Origin: a virus
Taxonomy: Duplodnaviria > Heunggongvirae > Uroviricota > Caudoviricetes
Reading direction: 5' to 3' (one strand)
IMG/VR virus record: IMGVR_UViG_2703718861_000008
DNA length: 5,176 nt
This document shows, one piece after another, positions 1 to 5,176 of the stretch (position 1 is the first letter of the stretch; each line of letters starts with the position of its first letter). The position numbers and the translations under genes were made by a program. Under the pieces are notes generated by a model that worked only from the letters and a program-made list of their open reading frames with translations, was not told the origin of the DNA and did not search any database.

Positions 1-272
1 GGTTCACCTTTATCCCCTTTCGGGCCGGTTTGCCCTGCCGGACCCTGTGGTCCGGGTGGTCCGGCCTCTCCACGTGGGCCGGTGTCACCTTTCGGCCCCG
101 GCGGTCCGCCCGGGTCACCTTTATCGCCCTTCGGTCCCTGTGGACCTGTTTCTCCCCGTTCTCCCTTTGGCCCCGGCTCACCTTTTGGTCCGACCGCCCC
201 CGTTGCCCCGGCTGGTCCCTGTGCCCCTGTGGCACCCTGTGGACCTGTGTCCCCCTTCTCGCCCGCCGGTCC
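1..272 (-). repeat. Collagen-like Gly-X-Y triplet repeat tract within stf (coding low-complexity repeat)
   Basis: Minus-strand translation from about residue 136 onward reads [90 protein letters not shown], i.e. about 30 consecutive G-X-Y triplets. At DNA level this is a GC-rich imperfect 9-nt periodicity (ggtcc / gggcc / ccgg motifs). The + strand complement produces the artefactual Pro/Gly-rich ORFs 30..692, 47..574 and 82..384. Confidence 0.75.
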
Positions 273-677
273 CCGGGCATTCTCTGCCCGTTTCTTCGCT
301 TCCTCTGCACTCGCCGCCGACGCTTCAGCACGCTTCAGGATTTCCGCTGCCACCGCTTCCAGCTCTGCAAGCGCTTTCGGGTAATACTGCGCCTCATCCT
401 GTTCCATCAGAAATTTATTCAGCGTTCCCGGCTCAGAATCCGCCTTCACCAGAATGTCACCCACATACGACGGGGCGTACCCTTCCGTGTTCAGCGTCAC
501 CCGGTACCACCCCGGCTCCACATCAAAACTGTAACTGCCGGTTTCCCCCGGCTGCCCCTGCGCCACCGTGGTGACTATCACTGTCTCTGTGGTGCGTCGC
601 GCTTTCAGCTCTATGGTGCATCCCGGCACCGGCTTCCCGGTGCCGTCCTTCAGCACGCCCGATATTCTGACTGTCAT
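1..677 (-). CDS. stf: Side tail fibre protein Stf homologue, N-terminal 225 codons (3' end of the gene lies beyond the left edge of the window)
   Basis: My manual minus-strand translation from the ATG at 677..675 gives [99 protein letters not shown]..., which matches the lambda Stf N-terminus as I recall it ([28 protein letters not shown]...DSQPGTLNDFL). It is followed by an alanine-rich predicted helical segment and then Gly-X-Y repeats. Shine-Dalgarno GGGAGA at 688..683, 5 nt before the ATG. The frame is open to position 1. The track does not list it because no stop falls inside the window. Confidence 0.85.
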
Positions 678-759
678 AGATTTCTCCCATAAAAAAAACC
701 GCAGTACCGGTTACCCGGTCTGCGATCAGGGGTATAAATTGTGACTGGCTGGTGTTAAA

Positions 760-783
760 GGGTGCCGTCAGTCAAAGGCACCC
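760..783 (-). other. GC-rich stem-loop in the J-stf intergenic region (weak terminator or RNA stability element)
   Basis: 7-bp inverted repeat GGGTGCC (760..766) / GGCACCC (777..783) with a 10-nt loop. On the minus strand it is followed by UUUAACACC, only three U residues, so it is at best a weak or leaky terminator between J and stf. Confidence 0.25.
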
Positions 784-861
784 GTGGATAATGTACGATG
801 TCCGGCTTTTGTCGTTTTCCGGCAATCACGAACAGATGGATGAAACCTCACTATCCACCTG

Positions 862-3800
862 TCACGATGCGGTATCAAAATCGTCTGTATAGGATTTCAG
901 GTAAAACAGAACCGGGTCATGGATCCGAATTTTACTCTTATCATGAAGTATTGAACCACCCATGTAAAAAAGCACATCTGCTTCATACCTGAATGTAATT
1001 TCAACCCGCACATCACCCTGTCCGGCAGGAATACTCCATGAGCCTGACGCATTTCCGCCAACATCAGAATATACCGGCTCATATCTGCTGGCGTTTTTGG
1101 AAATCTGGACCTCCCGCTCCCCGGTTTTGACTTTGCCTGACCTGGCATGAACGACAACTTTGTCATTTATCTTCATGATGAATTCACCTCTGGAAAATGA
1201 ATACGCCATAAGCATAAGCTTGCGATCAAACGGCATGTTGTCTTTCAGCAAAATCATTTTCTGAAAAGTCAGCTGGTTCTGAGTCATTACGCCCTGCCCC
1301 ATATCAACCGTGTATCCCTTGACGATATCACCAATGATTCGGTCAGCGCTCATCGTTCCATTAATGGTACAGTCTTCCGCAATCGTCACGTTATTCAGCG
1401 TACCGGAACTGGCACTGATATTCCCGCTGATATCGGCATTACGGGCCGTCAGCCTGCCGTCCGGCGTCAGGGAGAATGCCGGGGGATTGCCGCCGCTGGT
1501 AATGGTGGGGGCGGTAAGAACCTTTATCAGGGCCTCATTGATAAACGTCTGTCCCCCCTGCGTGACCAGTGCGGGTGTGGTATCACCATTCTCCGGATTA
1601 ATGAATGCCACACGGTCCGCTGCCAGCAGTATCTGGCTCTGCATCCCGTCAGGGGTGTTCTCAATACCGGCACCGATACCGGCAATATAGCGACGACCAT
1701 CCTGCATCTGCTGTAGCTTCACCGCCCACATGCTGTTCAGGTCATTATTTGTGTCCGTCTGCACACGCTGGATTTGCTGTATGGTGGCGTTCTGGTCCTC
1801 CAGCGTTTTACTGACCGTCTGCGTGATTTCATTGCGGGTTTCTGTGATGGTGGTCTGCATTTCCGCCATCTCGTCCTTCAGCTGACTGTTGTCAATCTCT
1901 GCCCACAGCGCCTCTGCCAGATGCGTTTTTCCTATCTTTTCCCGGAAAAGTTCCAGATAGCCCGCAGCATCATTGCTCGCCCGTCCACTGGCTTCAACAA
2001 ACGCGGATTTACCCACCAGATTGACGCTGCGCACGTAAAACCAGAAAACTTTCCCGGGTTTAATCTGGCTGCCGGAGACGCTCCACTGGCTGCCTGTCCC
2101 CAGATAACGGGCAGAGGTTTCCACCTGTGCGGCGTCTGCAATTTTTGCCTCCGAAAACCAGAACTCAAACTGCACCGTCGGGTCATAAATGGTCAGTTTC
2201 GGGACTGCCGTTATCTGAAAATACCCCGGCGTCAGTTCAACACCGGCAGGCGCTGCCGGTGCGTTAATCCGGAACGTGGTGGTGGCGGGTTCGCCCTGCT
2301 GGCCATAGCTGTTAATCGCCCTGACCGTCAGGGTGTATTCCCCGGGAGGCAGGCCACTGAAACGGTGCTCCGTATCGGCAGTGATGGCGGTGGTCAGCAG
2401 GCGGCTGTTCTCACCGCTTCCACTGGTCAGGCGCAGACTGAAGCGCACGCCCTTCACCACCCTCGGCGTGTCCCATTTCGCCAGCGCCAGATACTGGCTG
2501 TCAGCTGCGCTCACCTCCACCGTGAGGTGCTGTACTGCCGGTGGGATAACGCTGTTCAGGGTGCCTGACTGCGGCTCAAAGCGGGCCCCGTTATCCACGA
2601 TGGCTTCTTTTTCCGGTACGTGCTGCACCGCCGTAACGGCAAAGGTGCCGTCCGTGTTTTCCCGGATGGCCACACAGCGGAACAGGCGACGGCGCAGTGA
2701 CGGCAGGGAGAGTCCCCACACCCCGTATGTCTCCACACCATCAGGCAGGGTACTGACCTGTATCCGGTCCGGCGCGGGGTGTGCGGTGATGTCCACACTC
2801 ACCGGCTTACCGCTGCCGTTAATCAGGTTCACCGTCGATGCACCTGTCCCCGGAAGTGTCACTTCACGGTCCAGCGTCAGGGTGCGGGTGGCAGCATCAA
2901 TGGACAGGACACGTCCGCCGGTCAGGGTTCCGGCATAGTCGTTATCACAGATTTCAATGATGTCACCGGGTGTGTGCCGCAGCCCCTGAGACCCGAGTGT
3001 GAAATCCACCGTCTGCGTTTCCAGCAGTTCGGTCTTTATCACCCACAGCCCGGCACGGTGGGCCTGACCGCGGCTGGTACAGCCGAACGCGTCCATCTTC
3101 AGCAGGTTGCGTCCGTAGCGCAGTATGGCTTCCGGGTCTTCCACCAGTTCCGTGGAGGTCTGCCAGCCGTTCTGCGGGTCGGTGTAATTCACCTCCACCG
3201 CCGTGTGCCGGTCCTTCAGGGCACTGAAGCTGTAGCGGAACCCCACGCCGTTATCATCCACCACCACATCGCTGTTGGTGTACGGCCACACCACATCCGA
3301 CGGGCGGTCCTGAACGAACGTCAGCGTCTGGCCGTTCCATACCGGCATACAGCGCATCGCCGAGCAGAAATCACTGAGAACGTCCCACGCCTTACGCTGT
3401 TGTGCCAGGTACGCATTAAAGGTCATCCGCGGCTCGGTGCCCCCGAAGCCATCCGGCACCATCTGGTCGCAGTACTGCCCGATGGCATACAGCGCCCATT
3501 TGTCCACGTCTGCCGCCCCCAGGCGTTTTCCCATCCCGTAGCGCGGGTGAGTCAGCATGTCCCACAGGCACCAGGCCGGGTTATTGCTGTATGCCGGTTT
3601 CAGACTGCCGTCCCAGATACCACTGTACGTGCGTTTTTCCGGGTCATAGTTTGACGGCACCTGGATGATGCGACCGCGGATATGGTAGTTCACCGTCATC
3701 TGCTGGCCGCCGAACTGCTCCGCATCCACCTGCAGCCCCACAATGGCCGTGTTCGGGTAGCACTGTTTCACATCGATGATTTCGGTGTATGACGACCAGA

Positions 3801-4392
3801 GCGTCTTATTCTGCAGCTGGTCCGTGGTGCTGTCCGCCGTCTCCCTGACCATCCGGATGTTAAAGGGCCGGGGCGGCAGATTATCCAGAATCACCGACGC
3901 CAGGAACTGCGAGGTGGTCTTGCCGTTAATGGTGACATCCTTTTCTGTCACCCAGTTACCGTTACGCTGTAACTGAATCAGCAGACGGACAGAGGACGGA
4001 TTACGGTCACCCTTTGACGTGGTCTCCACCAGTGACTGCACCCCGAAGGTCACCCGCAGGCGGTCAATGTTCGCTGACGTGATGGTGCGTGTCACCGGTT
4101 TTGCCTTCGTCACTTCCACACCCAGTACAGTTTCAGCTCCGGAGGACTCAAAGCCTTCCGGTGGTGTCTGCTCCTGCTCCCCGGCACGCCAGACCGCTGT
4201 CACACCGTGTATCACGGGATTACCGTCCGTGTCCGTCAGCGGGGTTTTGTTCACCAGGATACTCTGCAGTCCCTTCACCGGACCTTCCACCGGTCCCTCA
4301 CCAATGGCATCAATCACACTCATCATCTGCGTGGATTTGAGATTGTCTTTCGCCTCGCGCGGTGTGTGCGCCTTGCCGCCGCCTTTGCCCAC
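862..4392 (-). CDS. J: Host specificity / tail tip fibre protein J homologue (~1176 aa), with a diverged C-terminal receptor-binding region
   Basis: The track ORF 862..4443 (1193 aa) matches lambda gpJ as I recall it along most of its length: VGKGGGKAHTPREAKDNLKSTQ versus lambda MGKGSSKGHTPREAKDNLKSTQ, plus long conserved blocks such as NKTLWSSYTEIIDVKQCYPNTA, AWCLWDMLTHPRYGMGKRLGAADVDKWALY, LTAPTITSGGNPPAFSLTPDG. I place the start at the GTG at 4392..4390, which aligns with the lambda initiator Met and has a purine-rich Shine-Dalgarno (AAGGGGGA) a few nt upstream. The track's TTG at 4443 lies inside the U-tract of a terminator-like hairpin and would add 17 residues with no lambda counterpart. 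Stop TGA at 864..862. Confidence 0.93.
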   Translation of the reverse strand: MGKGGGKAHTPREAKDNLKSTQMMSVIDAIGEGPVEGPVKGLQSILVNKTPLTDTDGNPVIHGVTAVWRAGEQEQTPPEGFESSGAETVLGVEVTKAKPVTRTITSANIDRLRVTFGVQSLVETTSKGDRNPSSVRLLIQLQRNGNWVTEKDVTINGKTTSQFLASVILDNLPPRPFNIRMVRETADSTTDQLQNKTLWSSYTEIIDVKQCYPNTAIVGLQVDAEQFGGQQMTVNYHIRGRIIQVPSNYDPEKRTYSGIWDGSLKPAYSNNPAWCLWDMLTHPRYGMGKRLGAADVDKWALYAIGQYCDQMVPDGFGGTEPRMTFNAYLAQQRKAWDVLSDFCSAMRCMPVWNGQTLTFVQDRPSDVVWPYTNSDVVVDDNGVGFRYSFSALKDRHTAVEVNYTDPQNGWQTSTELVEDPEAILRYGRNLLKMDAFGCTSRGQAHRAGLWVIKTELLETQTVDFTLGSQGLRHTPGDIIEICDNDYAGTLTGGRVLSIDAATRTLTLDREVTLPGTGASTVNLINGSGKPVSVDITAHPAPDRIQVSTLPDGVETYGVWGLSLPSLRRRLFRCVAIRENTDGTFAVTAVQHVPEKEAIVDNGARFEPQSGTLNSVIPPAVQHLTVEVSAADSQYLALAKWDTPRVVKGVRFSLRLTSGSGENSRLLTTAITADTEHRFSGLPPGEYTLTVRAINSYGQQGEPATTTFRINAPAAPAGVELTPGYFQITAVPKLTIYDPTVQFEFWFSEAKIADAAQVETSARYLGTGSQWSVSGSQIKPGKVFWFYVRSVNLVGKSAFVEASGRASNDAAGYLELFREKIGKTHLAEALWAEIDNSQLKDEMAEMQTTITETRNEITQTVSKTLEDQNATIQQIQRVQTDTNNDLNSMWAVKLQQMQDGRRYIAGIGAGIENTPDGMQSQILLAADRVAFINPENGDTTPALVTQGGQTFINEALIKVLTAPTITSGGNPPAFSLTPDGRLTARNADISGNISASSGTLNNVTIAEDCTINGTMSADRIIGDIVKGYTVDMGQGVMTQNQLTFQKMILLKDNMPFDRKLMLMAYSFSRGEFIMKINDKVVVHARSGKVKTGEREVQISKNASRYEPVYSDVGGNASGSWSIPAGQGDVRVEITFRYEADVLFYMGGSILHDKSKIRIHDPVLFYLKSYTDDFDTAS

Positions 4393-4430
4393 GGAATCCC
4401 CCTTCACCGTCCGCTGCCGGACACTGTTGA

Positions 4431-4465
4431 TGTATAAAAACAACAGGCACCCCGGAGAGTGCCTG
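4431..4465 (-). terminator. Rho-independent terminator-like hairpin, minus strand orientation, about 40 nt upstream of the J start
   Basis: Perfect 7-bp inverted repeat CAGGCAC (4444..4450) / GTGCCTG (4459..4465) with an 8-nt loop. Read on the minus strand it is followed by UUGUUUUUAUAC (complement of 4443..4432). On the + strand the flanks are A-rich upstream and non-T-rich downstream, so it is minus-oriented. Confidence 0.55.
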
Positions 4466-4503
4466 CATCATGACGGAATAAAAATTCTGAATATCTTCAC
4501 ATT

Positions 4504-4531
4504 TTCACAAACTGACTGTGGCGCTGATAAT
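4504..4531 (+). promoter_or_regulatory. Candidate sigma70-type promoter on the + strand inside the I-J intergenic insert
   Basis: -35-like TTCACA at 4504..4509 (5/6 to TTGACA; a second TTCACA copy at 4496..4501), 16-bp spacer, -10-like GATAAT at 4526..4531 (5/6 to TATAAT) preceded by TG. Predicted start near 4538, about 105 nt upstream of the + strand terminator T-tract. Consensus-matching only; no experimental support. Confidence 0.3.
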
Positions 4532-4537
4532 TTCGCT

Positions 4538-4642
4538 GCGTTAGTGTTTTTTTTGCCGTGACATAAAAAAAAACAACTCCTTAACACTAATCTTCATTTG
4601 TCTGAATCTCCCGCAGCTCCGCGATCACTGCGGGATTTTTTT
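4538..4642 (+). ncRNA. Hypothetical small RNA (~105 nt) transcribed antisense to the tail operon from the I-J intergenic insert
   Basis: Inferred only from the candidate promoter (4504..4531) plus the + strand intrinsic terminator (4610..4642). No + strand ORF longer than a few codons lies in this interval. The predicted transcript contains an A/U-only hairpin (U8 ... A9), a CA-rich single-stranded stretch (AACAACUCCUUAACACUAAUC) and the terminator stem. Ends are approximate. Confidence 0.25.
4610..4642 (+). terminator. Rho-independent terminator-like hairpin, + strand orientation
   Basis: Perfect 7-bp inverted repeat CCCGCAG (4610..4616) / CTGCGGG (4628..4634) with an 11-nt loop, followed on the + strand by A then TTTTTTT (4636..4642) and further T-rich sequence. 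In the minus orientation the stem is followed by AGAUUCAGAC, which is not U-rich, so this element is oriented to stop + strand (antisense to the tail genes) transcription, not to terminate gene I. Confidence 0.6.
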
Positions 4643-4649
4643 ATTCTTT

Positions 4650-5176
4650 TTACCCCTGCCGTCCGATAACCACGACCTTTCCGCCCCCGCCTTCATCACG
4701 GGTACTGATGTCCTGGGATATACGGCGGGAGCCAACCAGCATTTCCCCGTAAGGCACCGGCATCGGGTTCCCCTGGGCAATCATGTTATCCAGCGAGGAA
4801 AAGTACGTGTTCTGTCTGCCGTTATCCGTTGCCCTGTATTCCGGTGTTTTGGGCTTCGGGGCCAGCATCTGAGCCACACCACCCAGTATCATGCTGGCAC
4901 CCAGTGAGAACAGCATCGTGGTGGCAGTCAGCCCTCCGGCACTCAGGGCTGCGCCCCACAACGCCATCGTTGCACCGGCGGTGAAGAAAGAGCCCACAAT
5001 GGCTGCTGCCCCCAGCACCACCTGAAAAACACCATTTCCCCCGGCCCCTGCCAGCCGCGGTACAATATGAATCACGGCCCTCCCGCTCAGCGGTTCATGA
5101 AGACGGGCATACACCGCCTCCGGCGCGGTATCCTCACCGGCAATACGTATCTGGTACCAGCCTTCGTTCATCTGAC
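4650..5176 (-). CDS. I: Tail assembly protein I homologue, C-terminal part (5' end of the gene lies beyond the right edge of the window)
   Basis: Track ORF 4650..5171 translates to ...GWYQIRIAGEDT...VIHIVPRLAGAGGNGVFQVVLGAAAIVGSFFTAGATMALWGAA...NGRQNTYFSSLDNMIAQGNPMPVPYGEMLVGSRRISQDISTRDEGGGGKVVVIGRQG, which matches my recollection of the lambda gpI C-terminal two thirds (GWYQVRIAG...VIHIVPRVAGAKSGGVFQIVLGAAAIAGSFFTAGAT...NGKQNTYFSSLDNMVAQGNVLPVLYGEMRVGSRVVSQEISTADEGDGGQVVVIGR). The reading frame stays open to position 5176, so the true start is outside the window; the Met at 5171 is internal. Stop TAA at 4652..4650. Confidence 0.9.
   Translation of the reverse strand, partial: QMNEGWYQIRIAGEDTAPEAVYARLHEPLSGRAVIHIVPRLAGAGGNGVFQVVLGAAAIVGSFFTAGATMALWGAALSAGGLTATTMLFSLGASMILGGVAQMLAPKPKTPEYRATDNGRQNTYFSSLDNMIAQGNPMPVPYGEMLVGSRRISQDISTRDEGGGGKVVVIGRQG

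Follow-up and report, generated by a model that had tools for sequence, protein, structure and literature searches.

What does the end of a lambda-type tail gene encode when its resemblance to lambda breaks off, and where did it come from? The case considered here is gene J in a 5,176-nucleotide (nt) stretch of Caudoviricetes DNA, IMG/VR record IMGVR_UViG_2703718861_000008 (hereafter the window). In lambda-type phages, the tip of J decides which outer-membrane protein is used by the phage, or by an engineered lambda particle. The window's J lies on the minus strand (862..4392; GTG start at 4392, TGA stop at 862-864) and encodes a tip attachment protein, or central tail fibre, of 1176 amino acids (aa). 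An earlier note, made from the letters alone, had proposed that its last 151 codons (865..1317) form a mosaic receptor-binding domain. We favour, with a probability of about 0.78, the reading that these codons encode the receptor-binding tip of a lambda-type J, that this tip belongs to a rare subfamily of remote homologues, and that it was acquired by recombination, with a porin-type protein as our guess at its receptor.

Divergence, base composition and predicted fold of the J 3' end

The window's J is a lambda-type tip attachment protein. It is 63% identical to lambda J over its full length (BLASTP) and matches, in lambda's order, the Pfam families FNIII-A_GpJ, Phage-tail_3 (the hub), Ig_J, Ig_J_second and Phage_Tail_Tip (PF09327, at residues 871-998), with E 1e-30 to 1e-40. 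BLASTP identity to lambda is near-continuous until ...RIIGDIVK / ...NVTIAEDCTINGTMSADRIIGDIVK, beyond which we found scattered matches only. The lysine that ends GDIVK is residue 1025 (nt 1318); at the DNA level, the last segment shared with lambda in blastn spans window 1317-1518 (77%), and lambda has no match in 862-1316. The strong divergence from lambda that had been proposed for these 151 codons was therefore confirmed, and the remark that only a PFDR motif is retained proved essentially right. In an alignment of 25 sequences, the invariant columns past GDIVK are D87, F91, D92, R93 and N136 (numbered on a 212-aa query), and a PAGxG motif and a C-terminal lysine are common to nearly all sequences. 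The window's J carries 151 residues after GDIVK, as compared with 130-132 in the other alleles measured.

The earlier note had also judged this DNA by eye to be AT-richer than the rest of J. Across the 151 codons (453 nt), guanine-cytosine content (GC) is 0.446 and GC at third codon positions (GC3) is 0.483, as compared with 0.589 and 0.711 in the remaining 3075 nt of the gene, where the lowest 453-nt stretch still has a GC of 0.528 and a GC3 of 0.609. A two-segment likelihood changepoint gave a log-likelihood ratio of 19.8, against a maximum of 9.3 among 200 shuffles. The discontinuity is thus present, although its best position (nt 1394-1442) lies about 80-120 nt upstream, in the direction of the gene, of the amino-acid break. 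Since the drop is strongest at third codon positions, it reflects the background composition of the DNA rather than the amino acids encoded. The 3' end of lambda's J has no comparable drop (GC about 0.55-0.56, making lambda tip DNA 10 GC points higher than the window's), and tips of other non-lambda J alleles have a GC of 0.51-0.52 on bodies of 0.60. The fall therefore amounts to about 15 points in the window allele, about 9 in the other alleles and about 4 in lambda. A modest drop is general at the receptor-binding ends of non-lambda J genes; its size here is specific to the window's allele family, all three alleles of which have a low tip GC (0.446-0.482).

We then asked what the 151 residues resemble. 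At E <= 0.01, no Pfam family was matched by these residues, or by the whole J protein in that region. The window tip falls short of the gathering score of PF12421 (Ig_GpJ_C; 26.2 bits), which lambda J exceeds with 247 bits (4.5e-74), and PF12421 was likewise not matched in two related alleles described below (P0009 and P0010). Comparison of profiles was more informative: using hhalign, with the GDIVK prefix removed from both profiles, the subfamily matched a profile of nine PF12421-type tips with 92.5% probability (E 4.9e-7; 81 columns, 19% identity). The alignment spans domain positions 18-110 and leaves the last ~40 residues unmatched to lambda-type tips. Pairwise identity among PF12421-type tips is 38-99% (median 54%); to the window subfamily it is 16-27%.

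AlphaFold2 modelling of the tip by itself predicted a structure made up almost entirely of beta strands, with a predicted local distance difference test score (pLDDT) of 82.3 and a predicted template modelling score (pTM) of 0.73; at residues 124-128, pLDDT is below 50. The model's top four matches in the PDB were 9wcb, 8xcj, 8xck and 9wca, which are tips of A8 gpJ (an OmpC binder) and lambda gpJ (a LamB binder), closed states included (template modelling score (TM) 0.54-0.56; root-mean-square deviation (rmsd) 7-8 Å; E 5e-6 to 2e-5; identity 14-15%). The PDB matches that followed were generic jelly rolls with TM below 0.4, and the BFVD viral structure library returned only generic jelly rolls with TM below 0.45. 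For this search we used the tip-only model, the full 212-residue model having a misleadingly low TM owing to its free fibre segment. Comparison of the predicted structure with lambda's tip, one of the checks suggested with the original proposal, thus returned gpJ tips as the best matches, at a TM of about 0.55. The homology search suggested alongside it succeeded in part, yielding a remote gpJ-tip homologue by hhalign and neither a Pfam match nor a close relative with an assigned receptor. In our reading, the domain is a distant representative of the gpJ tip fold, in which an Ig-like or jelly-roll core would be conserved while the last ~40 residues, unaligned in the profile comparison, differ.

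The likeness to lambda's tip (PF12421; PDB 8XCJ and 8XCK; LamB) goes beyond the predicted beta-sandwich core (TM 0.54). Both tips stand at the end of a multi-domain protein, both are preceded by conserved beta-prism fibre sequence, and the D..FDR, N and PAGxG motifs occur in both; identity between the window tip and a lambda-type sequence (P0014) is about 18%, below what would mark it as LamB-type. The tips of A8 and 1A2 (natural alleles from E. coli prophages; PDB 9WCA and 9WCB), like the OmpC-binding tips of phages 434 and phi330, are also J C-termini that have been swapped in nature, with the joint in this same conserved part of the fibre, and A8 gpJ is the best structural match to the window tip (TM 0.55-0.56). 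A8 is of the RTNSYASG... type and 1A2 of the DSRAPERWPSG... type; unlike the window tip, both are PF12421 members, and both are common, in clusters of thousands, whereas the window tip is rare. Their identity to it is at most 27%, and with 16-27% to all PF12421-type alleles the window tip does not group with the OmpC tips either. By the supplement of Brodel et al., neither A8 nor 1A2 gpJ is the window allele.

Exchange, distribution and diversification of the module

The 5' junction of the low-GC cassette (1318..1380, minus strand; GC 0.476) encodes the last protein-conserved stretch (...TIAEDCTINGTMSADRIIGDIVK) in DNA unlike that of most related J genes. Of 259 phage records with a match to the window, most have an alignment that covers nt 1381-5176 and goes no further. 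Megablast alignments to Shiga toxin (Stx) phages and to PhiR5_1 also end at nt 1381, that to phage 1720a-02 at 1319 and that to lambda at 1317. On the 3' side, homology returns at nt <=704 for PhiR5_1 and at nt <=769 for 1720a-02, placing the junction in the 185-nt spacer between J and the side tail fibre gene stf (677..861, minus strand; GC 0.486). PhiR5_1 is 98-100% identical to the window above nt 1800 and matches it again over nt 1-704, with another tip and a lom gene between. These homology breakpoints coincide with the compositional change.

Upstream of the junction lies the alpha-helical shaft and beta-prism part of the fibre (the Phage_Tail_Tip domain; 1381..1900, minus strand). Nucleotides 1400-1800 are only 57-78% identical to the J genes of PhiR5_1 and a Stx2a phage, the closest J bodies, as compared with 98-100% above nt 1800, and the shaft and prism therefore form a second, outer mosaic block. 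Within it, the helical shaft at J residues ~836-880 (window ~1750-1890) is 44 residues longer than lambda's and cannot be aligned to it, appearing in BLASTP as a gap block in lambda. The same nesting is apparent from a RefSeq gpJ of 3531 nt, identical in length to the window's J, in a prophage adjoining potB in Escherichia coli S19-651. Over nt 1 to about 1900 this strain matches the window at 100%, and farther on identity is 84-99%, so that an end identical to the window's is joined to a J body differing by up to 16% per 100 nt. This pattern indicates that the fibre end, together with the start of stf, moved recently between different J bodies.

On comparison of sequences, the proposal of a mosaic receptor-binding domain acquired by recombination is thus supported by sharp breakpoints, rarity, the GC3 drop and the diverged body of S19-651; what needed revision is the size of the exchanged unit, which is larger than the tip, nested, and extends to about nt 1900. 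Swapped J ends are well known in lambdoid phages, and module exchange of the kind found here is ordinary. A lower-GC module would have been joined to a GC-rich lambda-like J body through homologous recombination, with crossovers in the protein-conserved fibre segment (...TSGGNPPAFSLTPDG...GDIVK) on one side and in the J-stf spacer or stf on the other, and the module may still be moving between prophages in this way.

The tip itself is rare. Only 5 of the 259 window-matching phage records cover nt 700-1500, all from the PhiR12 series, and tblastn of the 151 residues against 50,697 phage records found the same five only. These phages (PV340549-PV340554) carry the window tip at 94.7% amino-acid and 97-98% DNA identity and differ from the window elsewhere in J (95-96% overall). 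We found nothing relevant in the literature searched on the PhiR12 phages, their accessions or their receptor; a Laub-lab preprint describes similarly named ECOR-derived phages, without R12 or its receptor. Window-type tips are also carried by prophages of Shiga toxin-producing E. coli and of other E. coli; among 5,426 complete E. coli genomes, 29 had the tip, with 52 copies in all and at most six to a genome. Several prophages with this rare tip can thus share one genome, as at the six places in SW070917 and on three contigs of IMG genome 643348545; the IMG/VR loci L010, L015 and L016 are tied to such multiple carriage.

Protein clusters of the window tip have 4-102 members, as compared with thousands for common alleles. 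A word-indexed protein search with the 151 residues returned three fragment clusters of the same allele and nothing else, and an exhaustive HMMER search of 1.84 billion representatives returned the same allele and three repeat proteins (P0005, P0007 and P0008), which we treated as spurious, their scores being built from many short repeats. The HMMER library may hide tip variants in clusters whose representative has another tip, so absence from it is weak evidence. A longer query recovered two related alleles, P0009 (66% identical in the tip) and P0010 (32%); IMG/VR holds nine window-type and five P0010-type copies, and no relatives of the tip were found in GTDB species-representative genomes. 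Across these collections the subfamily is small, rare and restricted to E. coli prophages, with three known alleles: the window's, P0009 and P0010. Two of the IMG/VR loci with a P0010-type tip (L017 and L018) have J bodies with a GC of 0.52, as compared with the usual 0.60; they may belong to another phage lineage and offer a clue to where the module came from.

Comparison of 11 natural copies identified 8 nonsynonymous and 1 synonymous polymorphic codons in the tip (151 codons), as compared with 14 and 29 in the 194 codons upstream (Fisher's exact p = 0.0027). All 8 nonsynonymous codons fall in a distal segment at domain positions 89-133 (919..1053, minus strand), and 5 of them lie beyond position 110, in the part that has no match in the alignment to lambda-type tips and in which the model has its low-confidence loop. 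Intermediate haplotypes were observed, L012 lacking M313R and L013 lacking S289G. The excess of amino-acid changes in the distal third suggests ongoing selection on a putative receptor contact. Some copies are frameshifted: P0003 and P0006 shift frame at nt 966-971, a T6 run, and the J of PhiR12_5 is split into two annotated genes by the loss of one nucleotide at nt 1480, in a C5 run (1480-1484). These shifts at homopolymer runs may be sequencing errors; otherwise they are real inactivations.

Candidate receptor and competing explanations

In lambda, three gpJ tips form the end of the fibre, and four loops at the bottom insert into the LamB trimer; on binding, the tips spread, the prism twists, the shaft flips and the tail opens (PMC11101478). 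Natural gpJ C-termini from A8 and 1A2, grafted at lambda residue 964, switched the target of lambda particles from LamB to OmpC (Brodel et al. 2024, PMC11338833). The structures of lambda and A8 suggest, by analogy, that the distal tip would consist of three copies of the window domain, that loops at its bottom would dock on an outer-membrane protein, and that docking would trigger a rearrangement of the fibre that opens the tail. In the window's J the signalling part of the fibre is retained in full and the tip alone is exchanged, from which we infer the same mechanism acting through another contact surface.

Our search of the literature found no published receptor assignment for the window tip. 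The five PhiR12 records were deposited as complete phage genomes and name E. coli K-12 MG1655 or E. coli C as their host; this entry, in records that carry no plaquing data, suggests that the tip works and that its receptor occurs in both strains. Our best guess at the receptor is a trimeric porin-type protein of both E. coli K-12 and E. coli C. That it differs from LamB, as the earlier note had supposed, is plausible, and it is more likely that the candidate receptor is not LamB bound in lambda's manner. Since LamB-type and OmpC-type tips are equally distant from the window tip (16-27% identity) and equally like it in fold, the receptor cannot be read from the known examples. A bolder proposal, which we hold only tentatively, is that the subfamily of window, P0009 and P0010 types recognises an outer-membrane receptor other than LamB, OmpC and OmpF. 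If so, contact would be made through the added distal segment, which evolves fast, and the subfamily would offer a ready-made third specificity for retargeting lambda-based delivery particles.

The converse, that LamB remains the receptor, or else OmpC as for the A8, 1A2 and 434 types, and that the divergence of the tip reflects drift or the tracking of receptor alleles, is a real possibility that nevertheless falls short of an even chance. The predicted core fold of the window tip is shared with LamB-binding and OmpC-binding tips alike, all receptor-assigned J-type tips that we found use one of these two trimeric porins (PMC11101478, PMC11338833, PMC12502783, PMC12312913), and the records with the window tip list hosts of the K-12 and C strains, which express such porins. 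Against this, receptor-assigned tips are 38-99% identical to one another and only 16-27% identical to the window tip, and the distal ~40 residues, which bear most of the polymorphism, find no counterpart in LamB or OmpC tips in the profile comparison. Much less probable is an account in which the prophages are defective and their divergent J end is a remnant that is decaying or has lost its function. The frameshifted database copies (P0003, P0006 and PhiR12_5) would fit such decay, but they break at homopolymer runs where sequencing errors may occur, while the reading frame is intact in the window and in 10 of the 11 loci compared, the fold is predicted confidently, and five deposited complete phage genomes with this end list laboratory E. 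coli hosts.

As to origin, the AT-richness might be no foreign mark and might instead follow from amino-acid content or be common to J 3' ends generally, the tip then being an old resident allele of the lambdoid pool. Other non-lambda tips do lie below their bodies in GC (0.51-0.52 versus 0.60), and neither the GTDB representatives nor HMMER yielded a donor lineage. We nevertheless consider this unlikely, since third codon positions are the most affected (from 0.711 to 0.483), and since the drop exceeds that of other alleles (about 15 points versus about 9, and about 4 in lambda) and coincides with homology breakpoints.

Several points weigh against our preferred reading of a recombination-acquired receptor-binding tip. 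Because other J tips also show a smaller drop, low GC alone is weak evidence of recent foreign origin, and the low-GC DNA has no donor lineage among the GTDB species representatives, nor anything outside E. coli by exhaustive HMMER. A TM of 0.55 with an rmsd of 7-8 Å is a borderline fold match from a predicted model, whose underlying alignment is shallow (20 sequences, mostly of the other subfamily) and whose residues 124-128 are unreliable. The polymorphism test compares about two haplotypes and their intermediates, so that the 8:1 count represents few, non-independent events. The role as a putative receptor binder is itself read from position and fold.

Receptors and structures have so far been assigned to LamB-type and OmpC-type tips only. 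A natural, apparently functional tip outside PF12421 and outside all receptor-assigned groups is thus a candidate for a further specificity, and the published graft point at lambda residue 964 makes that candidate testable. The window also offers a clean natural example of nested module exchange combined with amino-acid-level diversification at a putative receptor contact surface. As mosaic J ends are already known in lambdoid prophages, these findings extend the established picture and do not change it.

Neighbouring genes and spacers

The minus strand of the window carries three genes in the order expected of a lambda-type J: the end of a homologue of tail assembly gene I (an I-like open reading frame (ORF); 4650-5171), J, and the 5' part of an stf-like side tail fibre gene (1..676). 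The same order is annotated in PhiR12_5 and S19-651. The stf-like gene encodes an N-terminal domain followed by collagen-like Gly-X-Y repeats and runs off the window. It is 97.8% identical to PhiR5_1 over nt 1-704, and RefSeq labels the matching position in S19-651 'prophage tail fiber N-terminal domain-containing protein'. The Gly-X-Y repeat region (window 1-300, minus strand) has a GC of about 0.68 and a strong AT skew.

The J-stf spacer holds a terminator-like hairpin followed by T8 (712..697), directly ahead of the stf start. It holds no lom, a gene that lambda and PhiR5_1 have between J and stf; a receptor-blocking gene beside J (cor-like or lom), considered as a clue to the receptor, was thus set aside, as these 185 nt carry none. 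On the other side of J, the spacer to the I homologue (window 4393-4649) is AT-rich (GC 0.432) and measures 257 nt, as compared with about 60 nt in lambda. It contains a 39-codon minus-strand ORF (4468-4587), at the position of which PhiR12_5 annotates a hypothetical protein of 32 aa.

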